In this document: piece after piece, positions 14,601 to 57,725 of the stretch
How the letters are laid out: each line of letters begins with the position of its first letter
Numbering within the stretch: the stretch's first letter is position 1
IMG/VR virus record: IMGVR_UViG_2510065010_000001
Location: 131,040 to 195,039 of that record
Length of the DNA: 64,000 nucleotides
Source: a virus
Lineage: Duplodnaviria; Caudoviricetes
Strand: one strand, 5' to 3'
Made by a program: the position numbers and the translations under genes
The notes under the pieces: model-generated
Seen by the model: only the letters and a program-made list of their open reading frames with translations
What the model was told of the DNA's origin: nothing
The model's database searches: none

Positions 14601-17600
14601 GAAGCTTCTCATGCTTTAGATGACTTGGGTCAAAAACAGCGTTTAACTTTGGATGATTTAGACCAGTTTATTTATTCACACGCCACAACTCGGTCAAATG
14701 TTCAAGAACTTAAGGACTTGCTAACTAGATCTAGTCAATCATCCACTGTCGCTTTGTATCAGAGGTTTTCCGGTGATGTAAACGCTAGCTTTTTGCAGCA
14801 GGTTTACAGTGATGAGTTATCTGCCAATGTTCGAGCGTTAGATGAATATATCAAGCGTTATCCCGGTCAGGTAGATGACTTGCTAAAAGTCCTGCGTAGG
14901 ACTAGTAATGCAGGCATCACAGACAAATATGAATCAATTCTAGAGTTAATAAAAGATCGAACGAGTTTTGTTGATCCAGGTGTTCGATACAGACGTGCAG
15001 CTAGTAAAGCTTTTCGTGTAGAACGAGCAGTTTTAGGTGACGTACTAAATGCACCTAAAAGGTTTGTTAAAGGTTTCGTTTCTCATAAGTCTACTGCCCC
15101 ACTTATTAATTTACGGTTTGCTGGACAAGCGCCAGATATGTCTGGGTGGAACTTAGCAGTCCAAACTTTTAACGCTGATTTTTCTGACCTTCCAAAACCT
15201 GTTGGAAAAATTCTTGGAGGGGTAGCAAAAGGAATTGGTTCTTACAGAATGCTTCGTTCCGGTTCAAGCATTCTTGCAGCTTCTCTGAGAAATGTAGCAT
15301 TAACTACGCTTGGTTCACTTGAGAAAGTTATTAACCCTGCCTACGCTGCAACCTACAATCTAAACTCTAAAATGTCTGCTGGCGGGGTTAGTGCTATTGG
15401 ATTGGTTGATTCTGTATTTATAGGAGTTGATTTATTTCAAGGTATTCAGTCCAACGCTGACTATGCTGCTCTTAATAAAAAGCTAAGACAGAACCCGGCA
15501 CAAGTGCAGGCATTTAAGCGAGAGATTATTAAGCTACGAAATAGTCAATTAGGAGGATTTCTGGGAGCAACACTAGGCGCTGCTGCTGGTTTGATTTCGA
15601 AAAATCCTCTCTATGGATTTATCCTGGGAGGAGCTGCCGGACTTGTTGCACCTTTGGTTGGATTCTTTGGACTCTCAGCTTATTTAGGTCAACAGGATTT
15701 AGAGTATGCAGCTAACGGTCATGCTCTATATGACCCAATGCAGTCACCTTCAATTTACTTACGAGTTAATAAACAATTGCTAGCAGAGAAGGAAGCAACC
15801 ACAAGAGTGCTGCGTCCTTTAAGGTCTAGTATTAAAAAGTTTGTTTCTCAAACAATGCGGTTAGTTGGACGAGCTGTGTTTCAGGCAGCTAAGCTTGGCT
15901 ATAATGCTTTGTCGCATCTGACTGCACTGGGGGTTGCGGCTACCACAACAACGGCTGCATTTTTAGGCTCTTCTCTGGCACTTGCAATTCCAGTCTTAGG
16001 AAAGGCTTACAACTTACTAGAGTTTGGCGCAAAAGGATTTGGACGATTTGCCTACTCTCTTGGAAAACCGTTATTTCCAGTGGTTGCATACCCTATTCGG
16101 CAACTGGGTAAACTCACTAGAAAAGGTATAGCTTTAAGCGCGACGGTTGTTAACAAAGTGACAGAATTTACTACCAATCAGGTAGCTAAACTAGGCAGAT
16201 TCAGTCAGCAAATTCTTTCAAATGTTTGGTCGTCTGGAGTGTATGTTGCAAGTCAAGCTTTGCGTATGGCTTCAAAAGCTGAGAGCTACTTAGGAGAAGC
16301 TGCCGCTAAGTTATATCAATATATTCCTCAATTTTCTTACTGGTCGGATGACCTGTTTCTTCCAGCCTTAAAATTTGCAGGTAGTACTGCACTGAAAACT
16401 GCACAACTCTCGATGGCTGCTGGTCGGGCTGTATTAAGTTCTTCATTTAGCCTGGTTAAATCAACAGTCAAAGCTTTTACACAGACTGTTAGGTTTGCTT
16501 CCGAGAATTCTTACAAGCTAGCCAAACCTATTATTAATGCATCAATCCAAGGATTACAGCTAGGAGTATCAGCAGCTTTCGAAATTGCTCGTCCGATAGC
16601 TAGCTTAACTAATAATCTTTTACGCTCTTCTTTTTACTTAGGTTCTAGTGTTCTTAAAGCTGGCGTTCATACTGTCTCGCTTCTTGCTCGAACAGGTTTT
16701 AACGTTTTAAGTAAAGTAACACAAGCACTGGCACAGTCAGCTGGATCTGAACTGCTACGAATCGGGGGTGGTATCTATTCAGAGTTAGCTACGTTCGCAA
16801 AGTATATACCTGGTTATCTAAAAACAAAAGGTAGTTTGCTTCGTCAGCTTGGGCGGTCTGCGTCATCTCTAGTTAAAGCTACAGTCAATATAGGTTCAGC
16901 TATAGCTCTATCTGCGGGTAAAGCTTTAGTAAGAGGCTCTAGGTTTGCAGCATCGGTAATAGGTTCTTCTGCACAAGCACTATGGCAAACCACGCAACGA
17001 CTTACAGGTTTAAGGTCAGTTTTTCCATTTTTAACAAATTTGGCAATAGGTGCAACAAACCTGCTCTACAAGACGTTAGGAAAACCAGCGATCGCTGCGA
17101 CATCCCTTGCCTTAAAACTAGGTGGTAGAGTAATTACCACTTCAGCAAAAGCTGCATTCCACTTATTAAAAACTACTCATTTGCCGAAAGGGTTTGTCTC
17201 CAAGACTATTTCTGCACTTAGAGATATTGGAGAGTATGCTTCTATAACCACGATGAGTGCCGCTCGGTCTTTTATTAAAACTACAGGTGCCTATCTTCGG
17301 GAATCATCTAAACTTTTAAGCAATCTGGGTACTCTTACAGGACAGACAGCTAAATTCTTATTTGACTCTTCTGTAGCAACAACCAAAGCTGTAGCAACGT
17401 TTGGAAAGCACATAATTAACGGTACGGGTCAAGTAACGTCTTACGCTCTTAGATCAACACTTGCCGCCGCCCGGTTTGCTAAGTCAACTGTTAAAAGTGC
17501 CGGAAAGTTATTAGCGTTTGCAGGTAGTGTTACTAACCAACTGGTTGACCGAGGTATAAGACAACTTGTTAGATACACACCAGGTCTTGCCAAAACCATA

Positions 17601-20600
17601 TTAGCTCACGGATATAAAGAGACTTTCTTAAACGTTCTCAGCCCTGCTCTTGATCTTGCCACAGTTGGTGGAGGAGTCTTTAAGGCAGGACAACTTAATG
17701 CTTACAGCTCTCTTTCAGAAGTAGAAGAAGCTTACATCCAAGCAGGTGCAGGGCGTGGCAGTTTAGTAGGCTCTGTTTTTGGACTCTTTGCAATGGGTCC
17801 GTTAGGCGATGTGGCTGGGTCTTTGTTAGGACAGTTTATTGGGTCTGAGGCTGCTAAAGAACGTGCTCGACTTCGTTACGAAGCTAGAGATTACGGTATC
17901 GTCCCTATTCTGGAAGATTTCGTCGAACCTTTAACGAGAGATACCGTGCTGGCTGGATATGTAGGGAAACAAGTAGGTAAGATGGGCAGTGCTGCTGTGC
18001 AGTCTTACCTACAAAATTCCTTAGCAAAGATAGCCAGTGGAAAAGCTAATAAGCTCGATCGCATGGTTACAGCAGCGTCAGCTGCTTACCGACAAGGATT
18101 CCGCTCCCAAGTAGCACAAGCAACTGGTCGATTTAGTAGAGTGCTGGGTCATGCGCCAGGTGCAGCCTCTATTGGAAAACTAGTTGGTGGAACGTCTAAA
18201 GTTGTCACAAAAACTGCTGGAAAGATTCTTCAAATTCTCGGACCTGCAATAGACGTTACTCGGATAGGAGCTGGATATGTGCAATCTCAATCGGCACGAA
18301 CTGAGGCTGAGTACCAAGTTTCTGTTCGAAGAACATCTGGTGGATTAGGTTCTATCGCAGGAGGTTTAATAGGGGGTGCTTTAGGAGGACCGATCGGTGC
18401 AGTCGCAGGTAGTCTCTTAGGTGATTTCGTTCTTGATAAAGTTGGTGAGAATCTGGCACAAGAAGCATACATGCGTAATGTGAGCGCTGGAACAATCACT
18501 ACAGGGCAAATTGCAGGGGGTGTAATTGGTGCTGGAGTAGGGTTATTAGCTGGGGGGTTATTAGTCGGTGCTGGATTAGTGGCAGCAGTGGCGACAGCTC
18601 CTATTCTTTTAGCAGCAGCAGGTATTGGTCTTTTGGTAGGTGCTGTAGCAGGCGGATACGCTATGCTCACTGGTAAGAAAAAAGACGAATCAAAAACTCG
18701 CCTGGTTCAAGTAGCTCAACGTCGCCGCGCAAGATGGAATACACCTGATGCTCTAAATCAACCCATTAAAAAGCAAAGCATTATTAAACAAACTGATAAT
18801 GAAATACTCGATGTAACCAAACGTTCTAAAGAGCGCTTAGCAATTGCACAGTCTTATTTGAGTCCTACTCAGCAACCTGAGTCAGCTACTAACGTAATGA
18901 CTCAAGCTAAAACATCTAACCAGACACAGAGAGACCAGCAACGTCAATGGTGGTCTGGTGTTTATGAAGGAGTTGTTGCAGTCGGACGAAAAAGTATGGA
19001 GTTGGTTGAAGGAGTGCGATCGTACATCAAACGTACCTACTCTGATTTTCAAACGATTCTCTCTAAAGTGTCAGAGTTTAAGGCTTCACTGTTTAATAAA
19101 TCCCAAAAAACGTCTGCTAAAGAATCTTTACCAACTACACAAGTTGAAGTAAGCGACCCTACTGATACGTCTACGGTTACTGGTACACCAGTAACGGTTA
19201 AGGGAGGTGTGAAACTTAACGAGGCAGATGCTTACCGACTTGCAGCACTTGCAATCATGGAAGCTCCAACTCGGATGGGTCGTTTGGATGTTGCCCAAGC
19301 GGTTTTCAATAGAATAAACGCACCTAAAGTAGGAGCCGCTTCTTATGGTTCTAGTGTTACAGCAGTAGTGTTTGCGTCTGGACAGTTCGAACCGTATTTT
19401 GGTGTAAGTGCTTCTGAAATTAAGAATAGGTCTGATGCCGTCTCTATTCTTAAAAGAAAACGAGGGATGAGCAGTGCCCAAGCGAACCAGTTATTAAACC
19501 AGTTTTTTGCAGATGTGGCTGACCCCGCAAAGATGGCTCAAGCCAGAAAACATGTTGGAGGACGTACCGACTTTAAAGGTACAACCATGTATAGCAACAT
19601 GGTTAAAGGTGAGGACAAGCTACGAACTTATGGAGAGAATTTCTTCCACATTGGTTCGGGTCAAAGCTATAAACAGCTTGCAAAATTGGAACAGCTCGGA
19701 CCTTCTGTAATTGTTAAAGAAGGACAAGAGTTGCCTAAATCGGTTGCAGGTTCCTCTCCTCCACAAAATTTATCAGGAAGATTATCTGGCAAGGTAGTTC
19801 CGTTTAAGGGCATCATCGTTACTTCTGCAGTAGATGCTTCAGGTGAACCAGGTCTTGACTATGTTGTTGAGTCAGGTAAGCGTGGTGCTCAGTTTGGTTC
19901 CCTAACTTCTGGACAAGTTATTGAAGTAGTAGCTAATCAAAACTGGGAGTCACATTTAGAGCGAGGAGATACCCGTAGAGGTTATGGTAATCGGGTAATT
20001 GTTCGTAGTAAAGATTCAAAAACTGGAGAATTCGTAGACATCCTTTACGCCCACTTAGACCGTGTGAACGTGAAGAAAGGTCAGAGTGTTGTGGTAGGTA
20101 GCGTTCTAGGTACTCAAGGTAGAACTGGTTCGACAACAGGTGCTCACGTTTCAGTTGACTTTTATGCAAAAGATGCAAATCACGCTTCAAGAGCATCCAT
20201 AGCGATGCGCGACCGTTTAGCGCGTGAATTATCTAGAGGTGCCCCAAATCTTAATAAACAAGTGAAACAAACACAGCAAGCAGCCGCAACTCAGGCACCT
20301 GCTACTGTACCTACAACGGCTTCTACTATTTCTAAGTCTGCACCTACTGTTTCAACTGAACAAAATGGTCAAATTGTAACAACCTCAAAGCTGAATACTA
20401 CAAGACAATCAGCTACTACAAAGTCCGTTGATAAGATTGCATCTAGTACGCCAATTCGTATTCCCTCTGGTTTGAATGCTAGAGGAAAAAAAATGGCGCA
20501 ATACTTAGCAAATCCAAATGTTCGAGCGGTTTTAGACACGATCGCTTATGCAGAAGGGTTGTGGGGTAAACCCGGTGGTGGCTATGACTTAGGCTTTAAC

Positions 20601-25454: not shown

Positions 25455-25787
25455 CTTTACGAATTTTTGACCGCAGTATAACCCGATTAGCATAAAACAA
25501 CTTGCAATAAGTGCTTGAACCCAGTTCATGTTTTTGATAAGCAATACTATTGGGATTGAAAGCTTGTTTACATGAAAAACAGAGAAGACAAAAACTAAAA
25601 CAGCGATTAAAACGTGTTCTACTTTAGATCGTGTAGCTTTGTCCACTAAAGTATCTACAGTGAAGACAATGGCGGCTGCAGGTATAAAGGTTGCAATAAA
25701 GTAAGGGACAGTTAGCAGTAACAAGATGGGTAAACTCATGTTAGAAAGGGTGGGAAAACCCACCCCGGTATTATTTTCTCGACTCAC
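25437..25787 (-). CDS. small membrane protein
   Basis: Three to four hydrophobic segments. Confidence 0.5.
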   Translation of the reverse strand: MSRENNTGVGFPTLSNMSLPILLLLTVPYFIATFIPAAAIVFTVDTLVDKATRSKVEHVLIAVLVFVFSVFHVNKLSIPIVLLIKNMNWVQALIASCFMLIGLYCGQKFVKLVKGF

Positions 25788-28700
25788 AAATCAGTCCTTC
25801 ACAAGCACTATCCTGTGGTCCTGATTCAGTTTTGTTTTTTAAGTGTTTTGACAACAGCTTATTAAAGTCTGAAGACTTCCGCCGTTGACTAACGCCTTTC
25901 ATTAACTCGTTATACTTCTCTCTAGAAATAGCTTCATAGGGCAGTCTAGGAAAAGGAGCATCGAATTTAGCTAATAGAGCCATCCCGACATAACCTTCAT
26001 CATCCCGGATTGCTTCGTAAATGCGTTTTGCTAGCGGCTTAATCTCATCCTCTGATAATGAAATCGTAACACTACCTGTGTGTCCAATATAATTTTGCTG
26101 CACAACCATATAGAAATCAAAGTGCGCTAATGCGCTGAATTCTCGAAACTTGATATTTTCGAGTTCAGGGAAGGCATTCACAATTTGGTTTTTGACCGGA
26201 ACTTCAACTAACCACTCTGTGCATCTATCATCAAAGGGGTCATTTAACAGTTTTCCAGTCTCGTCTTTGTCTGACTGAGAGGGAACTACATTGTACCCGT
26301 AGTCAATTGCAGCAAGTGCGACCGGATCGTTTTTACCAAAAGTCATCCGGCGTATAAAGTAAGCAGCAAACGGTGGGTGTAACCCGTTACAGTCGGTGCC
26401 CGTCAGCATAGACATAGAACCAGACGGTTTTACGGTAGTGCAGCGATTGGGTCGGCGTAGCCCGTGACGATCGCAATACTCGTATACAGTACACTCCACA
26501 ACATCACGCCAGCGTTTGCAATACTCTGCCTCGATTCGTTTGTACAGTTTTCCAGCACAGTCATAGTCGAATCCGATTAGTTTACTGGCTCGAACAAGTA
26601 GGGAATCACCATCAGGAGATAAGTCATCCCAGTTAGGATTTCTTCCAGCCTCCCACCACCTTACATAATCAACACCAAACAGTTTGGTAAAGAACGTGAA
26701 AAACCCTGTAGCAGATACACCTACTATAGGGTCGATCGTTCTTGCATAGTTTATTCGAGGGTGTGCGAAGTCTCTTTGTAGTAGAGCACTTGCTTGCAGA
26801 GAGCTTGCTCTGAAAGCATCCTTCTGCTCCTGAAAGTTATACGGGTCTAATTGGTTTAAGTGAACTTCAGCTAAGTTGCACATGAAATCAGAGCCTATTA
26901 TTTCGTGGCAATTGTGCGCAATATACCCTTCTACAACTCCCCAGTTTGTTGCTGGTTCAGAGAAATCATAAACTTTTTCGAAACCAATACTTTTGACAGA
27001 TGTAATTCTCGGTGCCTGCCTAATTAGAAGACTTTGTAGTTTCTCTGTTTTATAACTCAGAGAGAAGTTAATTAAGTTGAAGAATAATAGACGTGATTCA
27101 TACTGCTGAATACATACGTCATATGATTCTCTACAGGTGTACTCCCCGTTTCTAAACTTGACTTTTTTAGGCTTATTTGTCGTGAAATAAGCGTTGATTC
27201 CAAATTCCCTTTTCAGTGAATTAATCACTTGAGTTACTAATTCTCTTGATGTTGTTTTGAGTGTCACCCTCCCTTCATTTTTCAAGACTGAACCGTTTGC
27301 TGTAAACAGCCCATTTAAAAACGCAGCTTTTTTATCTACGCTCCAATCTTTATAAGTTGTTGGTAAGCTTCTATCTGGGAGTGGTGCAGAAGAAAATCCG
27401 TCACTTATCAATTTGTCTTTTAAACCTTGAACGTAAACAGTAGACTGGCTGTTCCACTCATACATATATCCGCAGTCCTCTAAAAGACTAAGAAACTCTT
27501 GGTCTTTTGTGCCTATGTTTATTTCAACACCCAAATGGTTCGTTGATTTTAATCGACACAAATTTCCATCTCCTTGAACAAAACCATCGATTACATACTC
27601 TTGCTTGTGATTCGGTACATTTAAGTAAGGAAGCAAGCGCTTACCTTTCAAATGTTTAGCGTCACAGTCTCCTTCAGTTGTGTACCATACGTGGTCTGGT
27701 GTACACTTTAGAATTTTTTTACTAGATAGCCTTAACCGAACAACCTCTTTTTCTCCTGAGCACCAAACTTTAGAGTTGGATATGTTCCCATTCTTGTTTA
27801 TTATTTTTGGTTCGGTATTTTCCAACTCAGCAAAAGACTTATAACCAGTTACGGTTAACAGTTTCATGTCTCCGGTAAAACAAGGATTTGCTGAATACCT
27901 CCTAATCCTATTCTCAAGAACTTTTTCGTCTAAGTCAGACCCGTTACTCAGAGACTTTAAGTATGCTTTTGCTGCTTCAATGCTCTCCTGGTATAGAGAT
28001 AAAAATAAAGCTTTCTTTTCAGGTGAGTTTAATAAGTCGGCATTGGCACGGGCAACTGCTTCGCCGCTCCATTGAATTGCACCTTCACCAGAGTGATACT
28101 GTTTAGTAACAGCCTCAAGACATTCTTCGTAGGTTGGTTTTTTATGAAATGCACGAGTGTGGTTTGCACTCCTGAGCGCATCGCGTTTGTGATCGATCAC
28201 CCAGTTACCACTTTCATCTTGCTGCCACAGGTTGTCTTTAGACGTAGTAAAATCAGGATCGTCTGAAGACCCTACACGTAGACCTGCTGAGTTATGTGTT
28301 AAGTAACCGTTGCAATAGAAACAATTAACTTCTTCAACTTCTATGTCATAAGTTTCCATAGTCTCGAAAAACTCTACAGATTCAACCGTAACCGGAATAT
28401 CGATTTCTACGTCTGACTCCTGAGAATATTTCTCATAGTTTGAGTCATGCTGTCTGCTAGCGCTCAGTTTCATACCTCTCATTTGTGTGTAGGTATATTC
28501 TTCTCGCATTAAAGTCGCTGGTATTGTATACCCGTACATTTTGAGTCCTATTTTAATTGGACCCTTCAGAGAGTATGGAGCTATCAAGCTGTTATACAAA
28601 GGCTTTAATGCTGGAATGTTTACGCTATGTCTAATATTCCAGTTGGGATTGCTTGGTAGAGACATTGCATATCTGCCTGCAATTCCCAAACTAGATAGTA

Positions 28701-30342
28701 CAGATCCAACCTGATAAATGAATGTTTTACTAATGTTTGTCACTAAAACGGGAGGTCTGTTGTAAATAGCGCCGTCACTATCTACTAAACCAGCTAAGTA
28801 AGCTGATCTGATCGAGGCATCCCCTTTTAGAATGAAATCTGGAACTTCTAATGACCGTCCAGCCTGTTTAATAAACTTGTGAAAGTATTCAGCCAAACGA
28901 ATGGAACAGCAGTTAAACCTTATTGTGTTTTCACCTTTTATTGGAGTGACTTCTATATCTAGCCCAAATTCTGCAATCCCGTTTTTTATTTTTTCTTTTA
29001 ACCTTGTTAAAAACTCTTCAGAGTAAGTAGCATTTGTTGTCCAGTTTACATACCCGTATGGCTTTCCGTACTTGTTACGTCCTAACCCGACGTGACCGTT
29101 TCCGTGTGTAAATCCGATCAACCAAGCAATTAAAGGTGTCAGAGATGGAATAGTTAAGTTCTTAGCTGTTGTACTGTTTTTAGGTCGTAGCTGTGTAAAG
29201 TCAGGAGGGAGGTCTGTTTTTGTTCCAGGGAGCACATCCTTTGTATGTAAAAGACGATCACCTTCAATTAAGTCATTACAACTTACCCAACGAAAATCTC
29301 CTTTAGCTGAAGCTAACACAGCGTGTCTATGTGACAGAGTGGACCTAAAGGGCATTGAGTTTGTTCTAATCTCATAGACATCCTGCAATCCCTGATAGAA
29401 CTTGTTTGTTACTCTTTTGAAACCAGCAGGTGTTTGAACTAAGTCTCCCACGTTGACAGCTTTAATCGGTACTAAACCATTAGCAGTATGAACTAGAGCA
29501 TCTTCTGGCAAGCATCGACGCACATTTCCTGCTACTACTGCTGCAGCTGCTTCACCAATCAACAAACAAACTTCTAAACTATTAAGCTTACGTCCGACAG
29601 CTTGATTCAAAACATCAGCGCATTTTAAGAACATTCCAGGTAATGCAATAGGGTTAGCTATTCCGCCAAATCCTAACAACCGTTCTCCTGCTGGACGTAC
29701 ACCAGAAACATCAACAAATACTTTTAGTTCATCTTTATCAGATGCACTTAACTCTAAAAGCTTTTGATAAGCGTTTACCCAGCCCTGTCTGCTATCCCCG
29801 ACTAAAATCCAAGCAGATCCTTTTAGAAACCAAACTAAAGTTTCTTCGCTACGTTTATGAGCTTCTCGTTGACCGGGTTCACCAACTATCTTAACTTCGA
29901 GTTTAGTGTTAATAACAGGTAACTGCTCAATACAACGTAGCTCAACATTTGCACCAGTGCCACACCCTTGCATGGCTAAATCCATCATGATTCCGAAAGA
30001 ATCCCAATCGACAATCTCCCAAGCACTACAGTTAAACCCACCTGGATAGTTTTCAGGTTTTTCAACCCACTTACTACCCCCTACCCACAACCATCTTGCT
30101 GAACCAAATGCCTTTCGTTCGCGCATCATTTGGTCAACTAATCGAGTTTCCTCTTCTGTAAATTTTCCTAGAAACTTTAACCCAAGATGAGAGCTGTAAA
30201 GACAACGGTCTACAGTTTCATCCCAGGTTTCAAGTCGCTCTTCCCCCTCTACCCTTCGAGCGTAGGAGCGGGTGCGAATTAATTCAGACATAGGGGCAGG
30301 GTCATATTCTAGATTCTGTACTGGCTCAAAAATGTCTGTCAT
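25771..30342 (-). CDS. nrdJ: class II (adenosylcobalamin-dependent, monomeric RTPR-type) ribonucleotide reductase with two inteins
   Basis: RSYARR..ETWDETVDR, FNCS, AGNVRR|SA, NP|CHE active-site loop, TTVKPSG, and a C-terminal Cys pair (ACEGLIC). Confidence 0.92.
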   Translation of the reverse strand: MTDIFEPVQNLEYDPAPMSELIRTRSYARRVEGEERLETWDETVDRCLYSSHLGLKFLGKFTEEETRLVDQMMRERKAFGSARWLWVGGSKWVEKPENYPGGFNCSAWEIVDWDSFGIMMDLAMQGCGTGANVELRCIEQLPVINTKLEVKIVGEPGQREAHKRSEETLVWFLKGSAWILVGDSRQGWVNAYQKLLELSASDKDELKVFVDVSGVRPAGERLLGFGGIANPIALPGMFLKCADVLNQAVGRKLNSLEVCLLIGEAAAAVVAGNVRRCLPEDALVHTANGLVPIKAVNVGDLVQTPAGFKRVTNKFYQGLQDVYEIRTNSMPFRSTLSHRHAVLASAKGDFRWVSCNDLIEGDRLLHTKDVLPGTKTDLPPDFTQLRPKNSTTAKNLTIPSLTPLIAWLIGFTHGNGHVGLGRNKYGKPYGYVNWTTNATYSEEFLTRLKEKIKNGIAEFGLDIEVTPIKGENTIRFNCCSIRLAEYFHKFIKQAGRSLEVPDFILKGDASIRSAYLAGLVDSDGAIYNRPPVLVTNISKTFIYQVGSVLSSLGIAGRYAMSLPSNPNWNIRHSVNIPALKPLYNSLIAPYSLKGPIKIGLKMYGYTIPATLMREEYTYTQMRGMKLSASRQHDSNYEKYSQESDVEIDIPVTVESVEFFETMETYDIEVEEVNCFYCNGYLTHNSAGLRVGSSDDPDFTTSKDNLWQQDESGNWVIDHKRDALRSANHTRAFHKKPTYEECLEAVTKQYHSGEGAIQWSGEAVARANADLLNSPEKKALFLSLYQESIEAAKAYLKSLSNGSDLDEKVLENRIRRYSANPCFTGDMKLLTVTGYKSFAELENTEPKIINKNGNISNSKVWCSGEKEVVRLRLSSKKILKCTPDHVWYTTEGDCDAKHLKGKRLLPYLNVPNHKQEYVIDGFVQGDGNLCRLKSTNHLGVEINIGTKDQEFLSLLEDCGYMYEWNSQSTVYVQGLKDKLISDGFSSAPLPDRSLPTTYKDWSVDKKAAFLNGLFTANGSVLKNEGRVTLKTTSRELVTQVINSLKREFGINAYFTTNKPKKVKFRNGEYTCRESYDVCIQQYESRLLFFNLINFSLSYKTEKLQSLLIRQAPRITSVKSIGFEKVYDFSEPATNWGVVEGYIAHNCHEIIGSDFMCNLAEVHLNQLDPYNFQEQKDAFRASSLQASALLQRDFAHPRINYARTIDPIVGVSATGFFTFFTKLFGVDYVRWWEAGRNPNWDDLSPDGDSLLVRASKLIGFDYDCAGKLYKRIEAEYCKRWRDVVECTVYEYCDRHGLRRPNRCTTVKPSGSMSMLTGTDCNGLHPPFAAYFIRRMTFGKNDPVALAAIDYGYNVVPSQSDKDETGKLLNDPFDDRCTEWLVEVPVKNQIVNAFPELENIKFREFSALAHFDFYMVVQQNYIGHTGSVTISLSEDEIKPLAKRIYEAIRDDEGYVGMALLAKFDAPFPRLPYEAISREKYNELMKGVSQRRKSSDFNKLLSKHLKNKTESGPQDSACEGLICESRK
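26911..27882 (-). mobile_element. intein 2 in NrdJ (324 aa) with LAGLIDADG homing endonuclease
   Basis: Starts CFTGDMK after ANP; block B CTPDH; ends IAHN before the catalytic Cys; contains IDGFVQGDG and LNGLFTANG. Confidence 0.92.
28291..29514 (-). mobile_element. intein 1 in NrdJ (408 aa) with LAGLIDADG homing endonuclease
   Basis: Starts CLPEDALV after AGNVRR and ends LTHN before Ser; contains LIGFTHGNG and LAGLVDSDG. Confidence 0.92.
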
Positions 30343-44330: not shown

Positions 44331-44706
44331 GAGGTGGCATGTGAAGATAATAATTGAACTAGACGGAAAACCCGATTCCTTAAAAACACTCTTGTTACAG
44401 GTATCACAGTATGTATGTGACCCGGTTGTAAAACAATTAGGTATATCTCTTGACGTAAAAAATGCTGCGGTTATAGGGCGCGTGACTATCGAGCCAGAAT
44501 CGCAACAGGATGCAGACTTGCAAGAAAAGGCAGTTCTATTTTTAAGGTCTGCTTATCTCTCTTACGAAACAGAGCACCCTGAAGTCTGGAAGCTCTGTGC
44601 GGCTGCTAACTTTGCAATGGAAACCGGGTTGGATATTAGATTCTGTAAACAGCTTATGGATGAACTTCTAGATAAAACCGTTTTTTACGCTAACTCAACG
44701 ACTTGA
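44329..44706 (+). CDS. hypothetical protein
   Basis: 125-aa ORF that exactly fills the gap between two minus-strand genes. Confidence 0.55.
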   Translation: MRWHVKIIIELDGKPDSLKTLLLQVSQYVCDPVVKQLGISLDVKNAAVIGRVTIEPESQQDADLQEKAVLFLRSAYLSYETEHPEVWKLCAAANFAMETGLDIRFCKQLMDELLDKTVFYANSTT

Positions 44707-45929
44707 CCAAAAGGTGGAATAAATTCATCGTCTGGTCGTAATAATCTATTACATGCCCACAAGACGGGAATTTTAGAGGATTTTGGAAAAGGTCCGTACA
44801 AGTCCGTTGCAATAATCATACAAGCGGGTTTAACCTTAATCTTCTTGTTATGGTCTTGTAAGAACTCTTCAAAAAGGCAAAGAAAATCGGTTCCACCTCC
44901 TCCATGAAATTTAACGTCCTTTAAGGCTTTGGCAAAAGTGTTGGAACCAGCCTTAAATTGCATAATGTCTTGAATTTCAGTGTCGAAAGTTACTAACGTT
45001 ATCGGGCATCTATAAATTCTTTGGATTTTAACAATGTTTGAGGCAAACATTGACAAAAGTCTATCTGACCAACAACTTCCAGAAACATCTACAGCGATGA
45101 TAAGGTGATCGTATTGTTGCTGTTTTTGTTGAGCAGGTAGATAAACATCAACAATGCCTGCTGTATACAACCTATTTGGGCGTCCCCAAAATGTTTTATA
45201 TTTCGGGGCTAATTTTTTCTGCAAGAAACCATTTAGATACTTCTGCCAGGGTGTGTGAACTTTGGGTAAGTCTCCACTTAGTAGTTTGAAGAATTCACCG
45301 AGCGCAGATCCATAGTTAGCCATTCGGCTAAGAATTTCTTGCATTTCTTCAACCTCTAGCTCCTCTGGTAGAGGAGGAACTTCCTTACCTTCAGTAAACT
45401 CAACACTTAATTCTTCCGCTTCATGAGTGGTTATCAAATCTTCTAAGGGATTTTTGAGGTTAGAAGTCCTGTGCTTTTTCAAAAGTTCAAACAAATCTTC
45501 TGTCCGTAACCCAGCTTTATCTAAGGGAAGTTCTTGTTTGACTTCACCTGGTAATGAATCATAAGTTAACATTCCAAGAATAGGTTGTAACCATTTTTGA
45601 GTTTTTATGGCTTCGTTGATAATGATGTCTGCGGCATAGTTCCACAGCTGTCTATCATTCACGCTGTTCACAAAATCTACAGACCGTTGTGCATGTCTTA
45701 GCGCTATGTGGTTTAGTTCATGCACGTATATAAAACACTGCTGTGGCAATGAGTACTCAAAAAATCTGTTGTGGAAATAAATGGTTCTCCCATCTGTGCA
45801 GGCAATATATTTAGGTTCGTCAACTATTTTGTTAGCTGCCCAAAGTGCCAGCTCGGTAATAGGGGAAAATTCGGAGATACAACATTGTCGTACCTCCTCT
45901 AAACACTCAATTTTCTTCGCTAACTCCAT
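44685..45929 (-). CDS. metallopeptidase-vWA protein (DUF2201-like)
   Basis: ACTDG, HELNHIALRH, WNYAAD..IN; MIDAS motif DVSGS, GGGGTDF, TD. Confidence 0.88.
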   Translation of the reverse strand: MELAKKIECLEEVRQCCISEFSPITELALWAANKIVDEPKYIACTDGRTIYFHNRFFEYSLPQQCFIYVHELNHIALRHAQRSVDFVNSVNDRQLWNYAADIIINEAIKTQKWLQPILGMLTYDSLPGEVKQELPLDKAGLRTEDLFELLKKHRTSNLKNPLEDLITTHEAEELSVEFTEGKEVPPLPEELEVEEMQEILSRMANYGSALGEFFKLLSGDLPKVHTPWQKYLNGFLQKKLAPKYKTFWGRPNRLYTAGIVDVYLPAQQKQQQYDHLIIAVDVSGSCWSDRLLSMFASNIVKIQRIYRCPITLVTFDTEIQDIMQFKAGSNTFAKALKDVKFHGGGGTDFLCLFEEFLQDHNKKIKVKPACMIIATDLYGPFPKSSKIPVLWACNRLLRPDDEFIPPFGQVVELA

Positions 45930-47083
45930 CAAGCACCCCCTAGTAAGTTACGTCGCATCGCGCTTGCTTTCGAAATGTACGGAGCAAAGTGTTTCATATA
46001 CTCCTGTTTGAACTTTCCAAATAGCAATTCTTGTTGCGCCTGTTCATCATTTACTAACTTTTTCATGAGTAGCTCATACCCTACGGTTTTTACTTCATTA
46101 CGGTAAGGGATGCTTTCTACTGAACAAACTGCGTTAATAATTTTGGCTGCAGCTAAGATGCTTTCACTATTGTTTGCTCTGTAAACTACGTTGTAAAGTA
46201 ACCCATACAGCGCATCTGTTGTGTCAGGTGCGATCGTTCTCAATTTTTCTGAGTCATTTGAAAACTCGAAGTAGTCTTCAATCGGATTAAGGTTATTTAA
46301 TCGTTTTCGAAACACTCGAAACGAATGTGCTGCCATAATACCTAACCACCCTGGAACAATATGCTCTAACACAGATGGATCATCTCCATACTTGTAAAGT
46401 ACGTTTGAAACTCGATTCCAAGACCGGGGGCTGGGTGTAATCAGATGCTCATCATTTCTAGAACCGCTGCCGCCATAGTCACTATCCACATATTCTTCGT
46501 CTAGATAACGTGGTTTAGCTCGTAGAAATGCAATCACATCTGGGTGCCACCCCTTACGTTCTGCATAATTTAACGTGCTAACAATGTCAGCCTTGACATT
46601 AAAATGACATAGACGGTCAGCCAGCGCTGTTCCCATTTCGTAAGCGATCGCTCCATCTTCTGGTCGATTACCTGCTCCAGCTAACCAGACGTTATCCGGC
46701 AGTTCGTAGTCTCGGAGTTTTCGGTCTTGTAAAATTTGGTATGCACATACCTGCACATCAGGAGTTGCAGCAGATAACTCATCAAACAGCAATATGTGGA
46801 TACGGTCATCTGGGATAGAAGCAATAAAATCGGGTAGGGTCCACAGCGTTACACCTTTTTCCCGATCAATCATTGGTAACCCAGCTGCGTCACCTGCCTG
46901 TTTTTGTCCAAGGTATACAGCTTCAAATCCAAAACCTTGTGATTCAGCTAAGTCTCGGAACGATTCTGTTTTACCAATTCCAGGCTTACCGTGAAAGTAA
47001 ACCGCATACCCAGCAGACATTACTTTAATTGCTGCTTGGATTGCTTGGTCAACACTTAACGATACGGTATTTACAATTGTCAT
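45929..47083 (-). CDS. MoxR-like AAA+ ATPase
   Basis: GKPGIGKT, LLFDEL, AGNRPED, ALADR, SPRSW. Confidence 0.88.
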   Translation of the reverse strand: MTIVNTVSLSVDQAIQAAIKVMSAGYAVYFHGKPGIGKTESFRDLAESQGFGFEAVYLGQKQAGDAAGLPMIDREKGVTLWTLPDFIASIPDDRIHILLFDELSAATPDVQVCAYQILQDRKLRDYELPDNVWLAGAGNRPEDGAIAYEMGTALADRLCHFNVKADIVSTLNYAERKGWHPDVIAFLRAKPRYLDEEYVDSDYGGSGSRNDEHLITPSPRSWNRVSNVLYKYGDDPSVLEHIVPGWLGIMAAHSFRVFRKRLNNLNPIEDYFEFSNDSEKLRTIAPDTTDALYGLLYNVVYRANNSESILAAAKIINAVCSVESIPYRNEVKTVGYELLMKKLVNDEQAQQELLFGKFKQEYMKHFAPYISKASAMRRNLLGGA

Positions 47084-52289: not shown

Positions 52290-52850
52290 CTATTTAGACC
52301 ACATTTTAGAAATAGCAGCTTCAGCCCGTCCACTCCATTCGTTGTTAAAAGTTTCTGCTTGGGCTTTTTCCATTAGACTCTTACAAATATTTCCCCAATG
52401 CTTTGCCTCTTCATTAGGTTCATAATACGGTTTGAAAATACCGTTTTTAATAATGCATTTATCTTCAACAAGAACTACATCACCGGGAACACAGCAAACT
52501 AGTTCGTCATGGACCAGCATACAAATTTTTGCGTCTGTCCCTAAGAACTCATCATATACGTAATCCATTGAGAGCTTAATTTGTGTAGAACCATATCCTT
52601 GAATTTGAAAGTTGACTCCAGACCTAGCAGGGCTGGCACCCGCTTGTTTGCTGTTATCTTCTGCCACCCATCTCAACCTTCCGTCACGATTTCTACTCCA
52701 TCCACGAACGGTGCAAAGATGTCCAATTTCCTTCGCCCACTTGTGAAATCCTGGATACGTTTGCTCGTGACGTTTGATCCAATCAGCGCAAAGTTCTTCT
52801 TTGACGTGGTAAAGGTCGGACATTGCCTTTGATGTCTGACCGTATATGAT
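52290..52850 (-). CDS. polA: family A DNA polymerase, C-terminal subunit, exon 2 (end of motif B, motif C)
   Basis: IIYG..., GRLRW, NFQIQG, LVHDELV. Confidence 0.9.
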   Translation of the reverse strand: MIYGQTSKAMSDLYHVKEELCADWIKRHEQTYPGFHKWAKEIGHLCTVRGWSRNRDGRLRWVAEDNSKQAGASPARSGVNFQIQGYGSTQIKLSMDYVYDEFLGTDAKICMLVHDELVCCVPGDVVLVEDKCIIKNGIFKPYYEPNEEAKHWGNICKSLMEKAQAETFNNEWSGRAEAAISKMWSK

Positions 52851-53092
52851 CACTTAGCCCCTAATTACTTAGGGAGTAGACTATACCTTAGTTGTTGTTT
52901 TGTGAAAAACAGAACAACAACTCCTGCCGTATTACCCATTTTTGAGTCTCAGAGTCACCTTATCCACTGGACTTAGGCTATCTTCAGTCGTTACACCATT
53001 CGATCATATTTCTAAGATCCCTGGCTCGGTATTGCCGCTCGTATGAGTACGGTTTCACCGAATTGAGCAGGTTTTACTTCGGCTATCACTTA
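52851..53092 (-). ncRNA. group I self-splicing intron (242 nt, no ORF)
   Basis: 5' exon ends in U (TTCGGT) and pairs with IGS GCCGAA via a U.G wobble. P AATTCGGTGAAAC, Q AATACCGAGC, R GTAACGACT, S AAGGTATAGTCT. P9 has a GTAA tetraloop and the intron ends in G. Splicing restores KRVNFG|IIYG. Confidence 0.92.
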
Positions 53093-53509
53093 ACCGAAAT
53101 TTACTCGCTTTGCATAGTCGCGAGGTTTTCCCTTCTGAGTAATTAAACTCTCATTCTTAGCAATATCTACCCACTCGTGCCGTTGCTTTCCTACAAATAA
53201 ATGTGGAAAGCAACAACCCATGCAAGTTAGAGTATGCAAGTCTGCGTCCGGGTTTGGATAAAATACTTGCTTGCCGTCTTTGACTACCTGTTTTCCATCC
53301 AGGTCTAACAAAGGTAAGGTTTCTTCTGACAAAAACGCTTTCAGCATTGTCTGGTCCTGAGAAAGGACGGCAGCAATATACAGTTCTTGTGAACTGAAGT
53401 CCACTGAAAGTAGAACGTATCCAGGTGGAGCGACAAACCCTCCTCTTGCTGTTAGTGAAAGCCTGACAGTTGTACCACCTGCTTTTATTGCTTCTGTGGT
53501 TTGATTCAA
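53093..53509 (-). CDS. polA: family A DNA polymerase, C-terminal subunit, exon 1 (motif A, start of motif B)
   Basis: RGGFVAPPGYVLLSVDFSSQEL, DLH, RDYAKRVNFG; GGAGG 5 nt before the TTG start. Confidence 0.9.
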
Positions 53510-53524
53510 TGCATCCTCCAGTGA

Positions 53525-53737
53525 TTAACGTTGTGTTAACGCACGACCAAGCCTGGTTAATCGATAAGGCTTCTCAGTTATTAAACGTTTTGAAATTAAC
53601 AACTTCAATAACTGATGAATCTGCTTACGATTAAACCTGGTTTCTAATGCCTTATAAGGCAAAACTAGCTTGTTGTCGGTACCAAATGCACGAAGAACAA
53701 CTAGCTCTTCTTCACTCACTGGTGTAAACCCTAGCAT
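53525..53737 (-). CDS. small winged-helix-like protein between the polA halves
   Basis: EEELVVLRAF...IHQLLKLLISKRLI....YRLTRLGR. Confidence 0.55.
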   Translation of the reverse strand: MLGFTPVSEEELVVLRAFGTDNKLVLPYKALETRFNRKQIHQLLKLLISKRLITEKPYRLTRLGRALTQR

Positions 53738-53867
53738 TTTCTTTTTCCTTTATTCGAAGGTCTACCTTATCGATAGTCGCTAGTAGCGCAGCTTTAACTG
53801 CGTACCATTGTTCTAAGGTCAAGTCACCAAGCTCATCTAAGTTAATAAAAGTCTCTACGCTTTGCAT
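53712..53867 (-). CDS. 51-aa ORF between the polA halves (MQSVETFINLDELGDLTLEQWYAVKAALLATIDKVDLRIKEKENARVYTSE)
   Basis: Translated by hand; overlaps both neighbours in operon fashion. Confidence 0.5.
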   Translation of the reverse strand: MQSVETFINLDELGDLTLEQWYAVKAALLATIDKVDLRIKEKENARVYTSE

Positions 53868-55270
53868 GGCGGCACCCAATCAGGAATAAGAGATTCGTAG
53901 TTTGCGGAGCTAGGGAAAAGTTTTTCCCGCTCTCGTTCAATCTCGACATACGTTCTAGCAGATACGTTCTGCAGATTGGGTCCACTAGACGAACTACGTC
54001 CAGTGGCAGCACCGAGAACGTCTAATCGGGAGTGGATACATCCAGTGAGAGGATTGATGTGACTTCTCAAATCCATCGAGTAAAGCTTGCGTAACTGCTT
54101 ATACTCAATGACCAACTTCGCAAGTTCAGAAGCTTGTACTGCCTCGCATTCGGAATAATCAAGGATTTGTCGGTACAATTCCTCTTCATCCTGGTCAACA
54201 AACTCGGTTGCTCCCTCTTTTGCTATCTCTTCTGTTAAGTCAATAAATCTCTCTAAGACTTGCGTTTGAGAGTTATCTAGCTCTAAGCCCACTTGTTTAT
54301 TAATTAACTCTTTTAGAATTTGAGGGTTGTTAAGAGCTTTGTACGATCGCTGAGTAGGTAACTTCGTGTCTCCCCAAAAAGAAGGCTCAGTATCTAACCC
54401 AAACTTTACGCACAACTTACTAGCAACTGTAGTTAAAGCTCCTTCTCCGGTGCTTGGGTCCTGGATAGATTTTTGAATTTGGTCAAAGATTTCACGCGAA
54501 GCTGGCAACCCGTTGTATTCCATCTCAGCAGCTACTACTGCCATCTTCATTTCTAATGGCAAGATAGCACTCATGCCTAATCCATGTGAACCTTCAACCC
54601 CATCAGCAAGAATTGGACTGTAAGGTAACGGGTCACAGATGACCTTCAAAAACAAGTCATGTAAATCAAACAGATACTTAACGTCGTTAGCTGCGTACTT
54701 CAACTTATCAAAAACCCAGTATTTATAACCCTCTGACTCTCGATTAGTAAAATCTGGACGTGCATACCAGTCTGTCGTCTGTTCTGCACCTTTTCCTACC
54801 AGGTTAATACCTAAGTAATCTCGGCATAGGTCTGCTAACGTATGCCCACACAATTTACCGTATTTACTACCTGTGGCATTTGTTATTAACTTCGCCATCA
54901 GTCTAGTACACCAGAGGTTTGAAGGTACTATGCCGTAGTGTCGCTTAAGGAACTTTCCGTCGAACTGAGCGTTATGAAAGATCAGTTTTTTACGGGACAC
55001 GAGTAAATCATGCATTAGCTGCGGATTATACCCGTTACGTTCTAGAAGAAGAATGTCAAACACGATAGGCACATCGTCTCTGCCCTGTAAAGTTAGCACA
55101 CTTATCCTTCCTGTATGAGGGTCTAATGCACTCGCTCCTTTTAGGTGACGATATTGAGGTAAAGTATACGTCTCTGAATCCCCTGCTAATTCCTCAAAGG
55201 ATTCTAGATGGTCAACGAAAAGACAGTACTCATCACGTTCTGTAACATAAACGAACTCATCTTTACTCAT
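53855..55270 (-). CDS. polA: family A DNA polymerase, N-terminal subunit (3'-5' exonuclease, thumb, start of palm)
   Basis: ExoI DSET, ExoII HNAQFD, ExoIII YAAND, EYNG, GCIH...ATGRSSSSGPNLQN. Confidence 0.9.
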   Translation of the reverse strand: MSKDEFVYVTERDEYCLFVDHLESFEELAGDSETYTLPQYRHLKGASALDPHTGRISVLTLQGRDDVPIVFDILLLERNGYNPQLMHDLLVSRKKLIFHNAQFDGKFLKRHYGIVPSNLWCTRLMAKLITNATGSKYGKLCGHTLADLCRDYLGINLVGKGAEQTTDWYARPDFTNRESEGYKYWVFDKLKYAANDVKYLFDLHDLFLKVICDPLPYSPILADGVEGSHGLGMSAILPLEMKMAVVAAEMEYNGLPASREIFDQIQKSIQDPSTGEGALTTVASKLCVKFGLDTEPSFWGDTKLPTQRSYKALNNPQILKELINKQVGLELDNSQTQVLERFIDLTEEIAKEGATEFVDQDEEELYRQILDYSECEAVQASELAKLVIEYKQLRKLYSMDLRSHINPLTGCIHSRLDVLGAATGRSSSSGPNLQNVSARTYVEIEREREKLFPSSANYESLIPDWVPPCKA

Positions 55271-55577
55271 ATGAGGTGATAAACGAATTAGGTGCAACAA
55301 CTTCTGGTATAGAGCTAATAAGACTTGTACTATCTGCCCTTACTTTGTCTCGTACAGTTTGGAAATCATCTGTTTCTGAGGCTTGTGCGGCTTGCTGAAC
55401 CTTCTCATCACGTTCTATTTGCAAGTCAGCAAGTCTAGCTTCAAACCATATCTGGGCAAATACACAACCTTGAAGATTTTTTATTAACTCCTCTTGCTGA
55501 CTACGTAACCTAACTTCAATAGCTTTTAACTGATTAATCTGCTCAGTGTATTCTTCAATTAGTAAAGTCTCTCTCAC
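55263..55577 (-). CDS. coiled-coil hypothetical protein
   Basis: 104-aa ORF. Confidence 0.5.
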   Translation of the reverse strand: MRETLLIEEYTEQINQLKAIEVRLRSQQEELIKNLQGCVFAQIWFEARLADLQIERDEKVQQAAQASETDDFQTVRDKVRADSTSLISSIPEVVAPNSFITSYE

Positions 55578-55652: not shown

Positions 55653-57725
55653 CTATATAGGAAGCGTGATTAGGTGGTCGTATAATTTGTTGAAAATCTC
55701 TGGGTTGGCTTTTAGGAAAGCAGTAACGCTATCGATGCCTTGTCCAATTTTGGACTCTACTCCATATTGAGTTGCAACTTCGTCGCTGAATTTATACCAG
55801 GACCCAGATCTGTTGACCAGTCCGGCATAGACTAGTTCTCCAGCTAACACGTCTTCAGGAACAATGCCATCTGCTTTATAGATGTTTACGTCAACACTTT
55901 CCCGTACAGAACCATTGGTGTGATTTTTTTGGATTTTTACTTGAGTAATTTGACCTTTAATAAATCCATCTTTAGTTTTGATAGCTTCCTTCTTCATAAG
56001 TTGAAGCCGCAAAGATGGCATGTGCCTTGCTCCATGCCCACCTGGAGTTCCAGTGGAATTGTGCACATTGATTCCGTACAAGTTGCCAGCAAAATAATTG
56101 TGAGTATCCGCCACTTCCAGATCGTACATTGTTTGCTCACCAATATTGGCTTTTGAAACCCCTGTAATAGTCAGGTGGCGAGGTACAACTTGTTGGTCTA
56201 TCAACCAAGTTTTAGGAGTGTTTAAGCGCTCAACTTCTAAATGCAAAGCATCCTGAGCAAACGTTGGTACCCAATCCTTAATAAGTTCTGATAACTTCTT
56301 AAAGGCATTTTGAGTGAGAAGAATCCCTTCTTGGCTAGACACGATGAGAATTTCAGATGCCTCGCACTCTATGAAATCTACCCACATTTTGTGGGCACGT
56401 TCTGTATCTGCCTTAGCTCGATACTGCTTAAATAGATGGTCGAGCCTGATGAAAAAGGTATTTTGGTCTGTCGATAGTTTTGGCTTTACTACGTTTGCTA
56501 CAAACCAGGCAGTTGCCATCTGTGGGGTTAAACCCAACTGTCGAGGTATAGTTCTAACTAGTTTATGAGATGGATCAGCAATGTAATATTGCTTTTTGAA
56601 TATTGCCATCTCCTCGTCTTGCCGAGAACGTCGCATAACTCGGTTGTTATGCTCATTTGTTCTCAGCTCTAGTAGTTCTTCTAGAAGTGAATTAATCCAC
56701 TCATTAAACCTTGGGTCAAGATTACTTGCGGTGTAGCAAAGTCTTGCTGTGCCAAGTTTAGTTTGTTCCAAATAGAACAAGCCTGAGAGCAATAAACCGT
56801 GTAACAATCCATACCCATCTGGGCTTGCAGTAATAGAAGTATACGCAGATGTGACAACATCATCCGGTTTTAACTGAGCAGATGGTAGATCACCCCGATT
56901 AATGGTAGGGACTATATGATCGTGCGTAGTTACTAAACGTCCAGGCATTTCTAAAAACTGAACAGCAATCCAATCTTTAGACTTACCGTTGATAAACCAG
57001 TTGGTGACTGGTTTTGAAACAATTTTACCCGTATCTATGTCTTTAGACAGTACATTTACTGAAAGTTTTTCTCTAACTACGGTTTCTATCGATTTTCGGG
57101 TTCCATCACTTAACGAGATTTTCATACTTGCTGGAAGACATCCACCCCCTGGACCACCAATACTAGACCGGATTTGGTTTGTAAAAACTAGAATACCCTG
57201 GTTGTCGTCTACTACTGGCACGAGCAAACTTTTAGCGTGGTTAATAAATCGGGAGAGGTAAGCAACACCTCTGGACTCGTCAATGCTTTTAGCCAAAATG
57301 TCAGATGGAACTAATGCTTCTATTGAGTCTAGAAAAGCAATTCTATGCTCACCTGATTTGAAAAATTCGATTAGAATTTCTATCGCTTCTTCGGCTGTAG
57401 GTGGCTTAGCATAGAAAAAATCGGATAGTTGAAATCTTTCCCTAGTGTTATTTGAGAAAGCTTTCCTCTCCATATCTAAGTACATTCCGATCCAACCTTG
57501 CTTTTGGGCGGCACTTAGAATTGCAAAACAAGTACTGCTTTTGCCTGCGTCAGGTCCACCATAAATCTCTGTGATTCTACCGATAGGTAACCCACCACCC
57601 AATGTTCTATCCAGTGAAATAATATTTGTACGTAAAAATTTGAGTTTAGGGTAGTCTCCAAACTTTACGTAACTCTGTTTAGCAAATAAATTTTGAACTG
57701 TACTAATTTCAGATAGCTCTACCAT
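55653..57725 (-). CDS. recA: RecA-family recombinase with intein
   Basis: SLD..LGGGLP.GRITEIYG..AGKS, LDSIEAL, FTNQIR, TPGG. Confidence 0.92.
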   Translation of the reverse strand: MVELSEISTVQNLFAKQSYVKFGDYPKLKFLRTNIISLDRTLGGGLPIGRITEIYGGPDAGKSSTCFAILSAAQKQGWIGMYLDMERKAFSNNTRERFQLSDFFYAKPPTAEEAIEILIEFFKSGEHRIAFLDSIEALVPSDILAKSIDESRGVAYLSRFINHAKSLLVPVVDDNQGILVFTNQIRSSIGGPGGGCLPASMKISLSDGTRKSIETVVREKLSVNVLSKDIDTGKIVSKPVTNWFINGKSKDWIAVQFLEMPGRLVTTHDHIVPTINRGDLPSAQLKPDDVVTSAYTSITASPDGYGLLHGLLLSGLFYLEQTKLGTARLCYTASNLDPRFNEWINSLLEELLELRTNEHNNRVMRRSRQDEEMAIFKKQYYIADPSHKLVRTIPRQLGLTPQMATAWFVANVVKPKLSTDQNTFFIRLDHLFKQYRAKADTERAHKMWVDFIECEASEILIVSSQEGILLTQNAFKKLSELIKDWVPTFAQDALHLEVERLNTPKTWLIDQQVVPRHLTITGVSKANIGEQTMYDLEVADTHNYFAGNLYGINVHNSTGTPGGHGARHMPSLRLQLMKKEAIKTKDGFIKGQITQVKIQKNHTNGSVRESVDVNIYKADGIVPEDVLAGELVYAGLVNRSGSWYKFSDEVATQYGVESKIGQGIDSVTAFLKANPEIFNKLYDHLITLPI
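56058..57140 (-). mobile_element. intein in RecA loop L2 (361 aa), endonuclease apparently degenerate
   Basis: Starts CLPASMK; block B TTHDH; ends MYDLEV..THNYFA...VHN before Ser. Confidence 0.9.

Follow-up and report, generated by a model that had tools for sequence, protein, structure and literature searches.

A probable ORF-less group I intron of phage type in motif B of a split prophage DNA polymerase gene

On the minus strand of the DNA analysed here (64,000 nucleotides, referred to as the window), 242 nt separate the ...RVNFG of a family A DNA polymerase from its continuation, IIYGQ.... What is this insert, and can the polymerase be made in spite of it? A first-pass annotation had described it as a group I intron without an open reading frame (ORF). 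We consider it very likely that the insert is a genuine, splicing-competent, ORF-less group I intron of phage type (IA2-like), situated in the C-piece gene of a polymerase that a prophage encodes in two genes. This assessment draws on features that can be read directly from the sequence: the anatomy of the intron, its match to a covariance model, covariation, intron-less alleles, and relatives at the same site with and without an ORF.

The split polymerase and its uninterrupted alleles

The window is a prophage, with genes for a head protein, a large terminase and a tail fibre. Its minus strand carries a replication module consisting of primase, helicases, clamp loader, exonuclease, ribonucleotide reductase (RNR) and RecA. 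Large genes of the prophage include:

5622-21476, plus strand: ORF of 5284 aa, with matches only in its C-terminal part (peptidase and lysozyme/endolysin)
25771-30342, minus strand: class II ribonucleotide reductase, 1523 aa, with a LAGLIDADG intein at about residues 856-1144
55653-57725, minus strand: RecA, 690 aa, with an intein at about residues 203-556 (Pfam Intein_splicing)

The polymerase locus is laid out as follows (in the sequences below, a slash marks an insertion point or junction):

53855..55300, minus strand: polymerase N-piece gene, 481 aa, encoding the 3'-5' exonuclease and the N-terminal part of the polymerase (Pfam)
53712-53879, minus strand: orf55, between the polymerase pieces, conserved in the related metagenome loci L005 and L006 (55% over 40 aa)
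53525-53737, minus strand: orf70, between the polymerase pieces, with a weak winged-helix match; not found in six related metagenome loci
53093..53509, minus strand: exon 1 of the C-piece gene, 139 codons, with a TTG start and GGAGG 5 nt upstream
53093, minus strand: end of exon 1, read in the sequence as ...AAT TTC GGT
53092, minus strand: 5' end of the intron, TAAGTGATAGCCGAA
52851..53092, minus strand: the intron, a 242-nt ORF-less insert read from 53092 to 52851
52851, minus strand: 3' end of the intron, ...CTAAGTG
52850, minus strand: start of exon 2, ATC ATA TAC GGT
52290..52850, minus strand: exon 2, 186 codons and a stop, completing motif B (IIYG) and containing motif C (VHDE)

Motif A (DFSSQEL) lies in exon 1, which also supplies the opening K..NFG half of motif B. 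The translation of exon 1 ends in ...PRDYAKRVNFG, that of exon 2 begins with IIYGQTSKAMS..., and the two exons match positions 140-184 and 217-344, respectively, of the Pfam DNA_pol_A profile. All family-invariant residues are kept in exon 2, including those of motif C. Residue 1 of exon 2 aligns to residue 669 of full-length Taq polymerase (1taq_A), and motif A of exon 1 aligns to Klenow chain residue 382. These alignments place the interruption inside motif B (the O-helix), between the residues aligned to Taq 668 and 669. From the equivalences between Taq and Escherichia coli numbering, we take this junction to correspond to residues 763 and 764 of E. coli Pol I. The first three bases of the intron, UAA, are in frame with exon 1. 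The 242 nt contain no ORF of at least 40 aa on either strand, in agreement with the earlier description of the intron as ORF-less.

The division of the polymerase into two genes is a separate matter from the insert. The N-piece terminates about 32 aa past the sequence PNLQNVSAR, and the C-piece begins with a TTG codon at 53509. All close relatives of the N-piece share this break point as well as a conserved tail, RTxVxIERPxxNLFPSSANYxxLxPDWxP, and in L005 and L006 the gene order is the same as in the split polymerase described here. We considered a second intron at the break between the N- and C-pieces, and ruled it out because the break is common to the family and Rfam shows no intron there. 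Some relatives contain a cis intein at GRSS/S.PN.QN, which is the classic intron site of SPO1 and Pf-WMP3.

A profile-free search with exon 2 among 1.84 billion representative sequences returned 62 proteins at E<=1e-10. The best homologues are 295-350 aa long and have the equivalent of exon 2 residue 1 at about position 105-160, which identifies them as uninterrupted C-pieces; all seven full-length homologues that were aligned run continuously across K..NFG/I.Y.QTA. A scan of metagenomes yielded six loci, five of which cover the junction (L005, L006, L007, L009 and L010), the sixth (L008) beginning within exon 2. In each of the five, the matches to exon 1 and exon 2 lie at consecutive bases and in one frame, and none of the six loci has a match to the Rfam group I intron model RF00028 at E<=0.01. 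The nearest intron-less allele, that of L005 and L006, reads AATTTCGGA/ATT. The proposal that removal of the insert restores K..NFGIIYG in frame is thus borne out by contiguous exons in five of five loci and seven of seven homologues.

Four further proteins of 183-197 aa (P0133, P0144, P0147 and P0157) have N-termini that coincide with the junction or lie no more than nine residues from it, and may mark additional interruptions at the same site within the split-polymerase family.

Close relatives of the locus itself are scarce. A megablast search of phages with 3.2 kb of the locus gave no match; neither a single-protein scan of genome contigs nor A3 profile scans of viral contigs and genome contigs revealed a close relative. 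The exon-2 protein was found in none of 60 related genomes at E<=1e-10. Among 400 genomes of the class, its matches were all weaker (E 3e-31 or worse), the best of them in frames of 840-1020 aa, which we read as ordinary chromosomal polymerase genes. In tblastn searches of phages, exon 2 produced nothing at 1e-8, and exon 1 retrieved distant polymerases only, with that of a Microcoleus phage being the best (36%).

Ribozyme anatomy, covariation and the proposed splicing course

The first-pass annotation had recommended a search with group I covariance models. RF00028 (Intron_gpI) matches positions 52858-53102 on the minus strand over its full length (model positions 1-253) with a score of 48.1 bits, which is under the gathering score of 50. 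The E-value is 1.2e-10 in a 2-kb search and 3.8e-9 in a search of the whole 64-kb window, where this is the sole match at E<=1e-3. At the curated gathering threshold (50 bits) Rfam reports nothing anywhere in the window; the intron is missed at default settings because its score falls 1.9 bits below the cut-off. By the same model, the experimentally validated polymerase intron of Pf-WMP3 scores 31.9 bits and the tRNA-Leu intron of the host 64.6 bits. The minimum free energy of the intron is -77.5 kcal/mol, compared to -58.5 +/- 5.0 kcal/mol for 200 shuffled sequences (z -3.8), none of which is equally stable.

The elements of the ribozyme are located as follows:

53093..53099, minus strand: 5' strand of P1, UUUCGGU, the final 7 nt of exon 1, pairing with intron positions 10-16 without mismatch
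53084..53088, minus strand: intron strand of P10, (G)UGAU, forming five contiguous pairs with the start of exon 2 (52846-52850)
53077..53083, minus strand: internal guide sequence GCCGAAG, the 3' strand of P1
53066-53071 with 52923-52928, minus strand: P3 (intron positions 22-27 and 165-170), from the Rfam alignment and the pair list
52986-52989 (GACU) with 52879..52882 (AGUC), minus strand: P7
52951-52983, minus strand: P7.1, a hairpin between P7 and P3'
52934-52947, minus strand: P7.2, a hairpin between P7 and P3'
52890..52922, minus strand: P8, a perfect 10-bp helix with a 13-nt loop
52859..52874, minus strand: P9, CCCUAA-GUAA-UUAGGG, with a GNRA loop

The intron coordinates and every helix quoted in the first-pass annotation could be indexed in the sequence and are correct, and the pair list of the intron contains no mismatches. 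P1, for which a U.G pair at the splice site had been predicted, pairs UUUCGGU with GCCGAAG over seven positions, U53093 making the U.G pair at the 5' splice site; across nine relatives, 93.7% of the P1 cells are paired. P10, put forward as TGAT with exon ATCA, extends to five contiguous pairs, (G)UGAU with AUCA(U). Five of six ORF-less relatives can form at least four P10 pairs with their own exon 2, using differing sequences. The last base of the intron, 52851, is omega-G, and all six ORF-less members end in G.

P3, P7, P8 and P9, as they had been proposed, each pair without mismatch. The span enclosed by P3 (52923..53071) contains P4, P5/P5a, P6/P6a with a GAAA loop, the 5' strand of P7, P7.1 and P7.2. 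P3 is paired in 100% of cells in nine sequences, with two compensatory pairs; P8 shows compensatory changes in nine of its ten pairs (nine sequences); P9 is likewise 100% paired, with compensatory changes in five of six pairs. P2 is absent, its positions being deleted in the Rfam alignment. The 57 nt inserted between P7 and P3' fold locally into the two hairpins P7.1 and P7.2, which have 71-77% of cells paired and compensatory changes among relatives, and are the least supported helices of the structure. Around P7, J6/7 and J8/7 are near the consensus, and the 3' strand of P7 sits in a 17-nt block spanning J8/7, P7 and J7/9, AAGGUAUAGUCUACUCC.

More than 104 viral contigs share this 17-mer, some of them in introns at the nrdD site. 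The best intron among the matches listed, L098, interrupts the exonuclease domain of a different phage polymerase (...STLFG/KETFD). The intron at L098:68-349 (plus strand) is the same as that at L017:569-1073 (minus strand), which is enlarged in its P7.2 loop by about 285 nt of additional sequence containing no long ORF. In a comparison of our intron with L098, 17 of 70 pairs are compensatory, compared to 1-3 in controls slid by 1-3 columns; the four pairs of P7 are all invariant. None of the 104 loci retrieved with the 17-mer has K..N[FY]G directly upstream of the intron.

A covariance model, R1, was built from the polymerase intron and L098. Relatives at the same site were sought with a pattern combining the guide and J1/3; this returned 120 loci, including many chance matches, which were then filtered with R1. 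Six introns at the motif-B site were obtained, by this route only: L195 (130 bits), L142 (86.5 bits; also fetched as L238), L216 (73 bits) and three that carry an ORF, L138 (49 bits), L150 (43 bits) and L254 (40 bits). All six follow ..[NSVG]FG, with the exon ending in TTCGGT and the guide reading GCCGAA. Pairing between exon TTCGGT and guide GCCGAA was seen in seven related introns; the common TTCGGT is partly built in, as the fetching pattern contains the guide sequence. In an alignment of nine related introns, which was fitted to the model and is therefore biased in its favour, pairing extends to 87.8% of cells, compared to 34-46% when partners are slid; compensatory changes affect 43 of 66 pairs, compared to 10-19 in the same controls. 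The assignment to group I is thus upheld by the Rfam match, the canonical anatomy, the intron-less homologues and the covariation with related introns.

These data also bear on the reading in which nothing is spliced and the polymerase consists of three polypeptides, the 242 nt being a structured spacer and exon 2 being translated from a GTG codon at 52853. The polymerase family has already been split once into two genes, and a purine-rich AGGGG does lie a few bases upstream of this GTG, but the candidate ribosome site is inside the stem of P9. Moreover, the break would cut the motif-B helix between NFG and IIYG, where the five site-covering loci and seven homologues are continuous, and the supposed spacer matches a ribozyme model over its full length, with covariation. 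We regard this reading as extremely unlikely.

A decayed intron that can no longer splice, which would make the C-piece a pseudogene in a prophage unable to replicate itself, is improbable. Decay would fit a score just below the Rfam cut-off and the lack of an endonuclease, a condition in which the homing cycle ends. Nor did the 60 related genomes or the 400 genomes of the class yield a close prophage relative, which precludes a comparative check of gene integrity. However, the ribozyme is intact in all its core helices, in the U.G pair and P10, and in the terminal G and J8/7-P7 block, the adjoining prophage genes are long and uninterrupted, and exon 2, which would be untranslatable junk after decay, retains all family-invariant residues.

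For the functional intron that we favour, we infer transcription, the splicing chemistry and the role of the UAA to be as follows. Transcription would run through the intron in the polymerase C-piece gene, and the in-frame UAA at the start of the intron would halt ribosomes, so that the folding ribozyme is kept free of them. The guide GCCGAAG and the exon end UUUCGGU would form P1, with the U.G pair at the cleavage site, and a free guanosine at P7 would cut after U53093. P10, formed by (G)UGAU and AUCA(U), would then recruit exon 2, with the terminal G52851 occupying the guanosine site. Ligation of the exons would give ...AAT TTC GGT/ATC ATA TAC GGT... and restore the motif-B helix, K..NFG/IIYG.

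Since the in-frame UAA would allow unspliced RNA to yield a truncated product only, one could imagine a functional intron whose splicing is conditional, switching polymerase production when the prophage is induced. We think this very unlikely, as the sequence is no different from that of ordinary constitutive phage introns and relatives occur in lytic-phage-like contigs.

Annotation of such loci is directly affected. Default Rfam searches miss the intron, and gene callers cut the C-piece into two false proteins; one of these is on record as P0125, a protein of 177 aa with an internal Met start.

Relatives at the same site and routes of mobility

The same-site relative with the highest R1 score, L195, is 66% identical to our intron at the nucleotide level and likewise starts with UAA. 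The polymerases hosting the same-site introns are very divergent, with no more than 29% identity over short stretches. Similar introns lying in flanks that can barely be aligned usually indicate that an intron has passed between divergent hosts at a conserved site, as we suggest has happened here. All six same-site relatives come from viral metagenome contigs and none from a bacterial chromosome. The metagenomes show that the motif-B site is well used, and because the family there includes members that have an intron ORF as well as members that lack one, every stage of the homing cycle can be seen at this one site. The window also extends the host range of this phage-type intron lineage to a prophage of a probably cyanobacterial chromosome.

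In one of these viruses the polymerase gene contains two introns, at L142:479-738 and L142:1073-1327 (both minus strand), which are 67% identical and closely alike in P7.1. Motif A is interrupted by one of them (SADFS/QQELR, exon TTCAGT, guide GCTGAA) and motif B by the other (VVFG/VVYG, exon TTCGGT, guide GCCGAA).

The first-pass annotation had remarked that, with no homing endonuclease of its own, any mobility of the intron would have to be supplied in trans. This is reasonable. Among the ORF-bearing relatives, the L150 intron has an ORF of 139 aa, which starts just past P3', at the position of P8, and reaches Pfam HNH. In L138 the ORF encodes 176 aa, with an HNH-like H..H..N..H motif discernible by eye and no Pfam match. 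L254 resembles L150, but its ORF is cut short. In the window, by comparison, no HNH domain was found: the Pfam family PF01844 has four matches in the genome, of which none falls within the range of the window. When the HNH protein of L150 was used as a query, no homologue was found in the prophage-bearing genome, and a blastn search of phages with the L150 intron and its HNH gene gave no match.

A gene at 44685-45932 that PHROG labels "HNH endonuclease" was examined as a candidate trans-acting endonuclease and rejected, since Pfam finds DUF2201 and VWA domains in it. The region at 44685-47083 (minus strand) comprises this ORF, a DUF2201 metallopeptidase-like/VWA protein, which adjoins an ATPase.

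Without an endonuclease, the intron cannot home alone. The likeliest reading is that it represents the endonuclease-less state of a homing intron family that occupies this site; we infer that its endonuclease was lost or never gained. On the same likeliest reading, the intron would be retained because splicing renders it harmless, and would be mobile only through a trans-acting endonuclease provided by a co-infecting relative. A route of this kind, with the endonuclease supplied in trans, is documented for other phage introns (PMC3984707).

Endonuclease homing may not be the only way in which the lineage spreads. Relatives that were not selected by their guide are found at three other places, all of them following UUCNGU:

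polymerase exonuclease domain, LFG/K: exon TTCGGT (L098 and L017)
polymerase motif A, DFS/Q: exon TTCAGT, with the compensating guide GCTGAA (L142)
ribonucleotide reductase gene: exon TTCTGT (L255)

The L255 intron, a close relative (R1 87.8 bits; exon TTCTGT), lies at L255:1183-1397 in Rhizobium phage RHph_N3_13, where it is unannotated and splits an RNR gene annotated as two partial proteins. By eye, the flanks of the introns at UUCNGU sites show no similarity past the hexamer. It is possible, though we are inclined to doubt it, that the lineage moves between unrelated sites by reverse splicing guided by the 6-nt match, and not by endonuclease homing. The UUCNGU pattern is weak evidence for this because a P1 match to the exon is required of every functional intron, by whatever route it came. 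If reverse splicing were the explanation, phage protein genes would hold a clean natural record of RNA-guided intron transposition.

Subgroup and comparison with known systems

The first-pass annotation had likened the P/Q elements to those of cyanobacterial tRNA-Leu-type introns. This likeness does not hold up: the P, Q, R and S elements agree just as well with the group I consensus at large, P2 is missing, and P7 is separated from P3' by 57 nt, compared to 3 nt in the tRNA-Leu intron. A direct comparison is afforded by the tRNA-Leu(UAA) intron of the host, located in the anticodon loop at G000:C1:3617108-3617388 (L001:1501-1781), in a tRNA that ARAGORN does not call. We take this intron, which is of the classic cyanobacterial and plastid type, to belong to subgroup IC3. 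It shares with the polymerase intron its genome and the generic P/Q/R/S consensus, but it has P2, only 3 nt between P7 and P3', and a position in a tRNA anticodon loop. R1 matches phage polymerase and RNR introns and misses the host tRNA-Leu intron (E<=1); its one match in the host genome is the polymerase intron itself.

The architecture, the relatives found with R1 and the occurrence of the 17-mer in nrdD-site introns instead point to an IA2-like intron of phage type. The hairpins P7.1 and P7.2, whose position between P7 and P3' is a hallmark of subgroup IA, are present with moderate support; since no other helices are supported less well, it is architecture and relatives, and not a subgroup-specific model, that underlie the IA2 label. 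The polymerase intron of Pf-WMP3, which is classed as IA2, lacks P2, has P7.1 and P7.2 and starts with an in-frame UAA (PMC3428280), and it is these features that suggest the IA2-like label here.

Group I introns are classically found in phage polymerase genes, and in this respect the intron is a phage element of an ordinary kind. In large phages, small group I introns lacking an ORF have been reported by the thousand (PMC12880540). Our understanding of how group I introns work is unchanged by this example. The polymerase intron sites listed for phages in PMC3428280 correspond to E. coli residues 674, 676 and 881. Motif B is not among these three, and adds to them. Full-text literature searches found no description of a polymerase intron in motif B or the O-helix, which does not prove that the site is unpublished.

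The intron of cyanophage Pf-WMP3, which encodes I-PfoP3I, is alike in interrupting a phage family A polymerase, in lacking P2, in having P7.1 and P7.2 and in starting with UAA (PMC3428280). It also shares a core block, ...AUAGUCUACUCC, followed by the P9 hairpin, and scores 20.8 bits with R1 (E about 1e-4). It differs in its site: the introns of Pf-WMP3 and of SPO1, SP82 and Bastille are inserted at ...SSSKP/NIQQIP (E. coli 674-676), outside motif B (PMC3428280); residue 674, with ...SSSKP/NIQQIP, was confirmed in L004. These introns carry an HNH gene, whereas the motif-B intron has none.

A second known type is found in T3/T7-like phages (PhiI, W31), represented here by Escherichia phage Sekstaphage-1 (L256). 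This is again a group I intron in a polymerase gene, with an R1 score of 22.3 bits and local blastn similarity in P3-P5. Unlike ours, it is inserted in motif C, after ...MAWVH (site 881; PMC3428280), a position confirmed by our reading of L256, and has an HNH gene.

Further counterparts are the same-site introns (L195, L142/L238, L216, L138, L150 and L254), which share the TTC GGT insertion point, the guide GCCGAA and the start of J1/3-P3, and score 40-130 bits with R1. They differ in that their host polymerases are very divergent and that three of the six carry an ORF in P8.

With respect to mobility, a parallel is the psbA intron of cyanophage S-PM2 and the free-standing endonuclease F-CphI. 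The S-PM2 intron resides in another gene and is not matched by R1 at E<=1, and no adjacent endonuclease gene was found for the intron described here; a 36-nt stretch of the S-PM2 intron is 92% identical to L195. For this intron and F-CphI, collaborative homing has been described (PMC3984707), and the two systems are alike in combining a small ORF-less intron, a cyanobacterial virus and mobility in trans, which for the motif-B intron is the route we consider likeliest.
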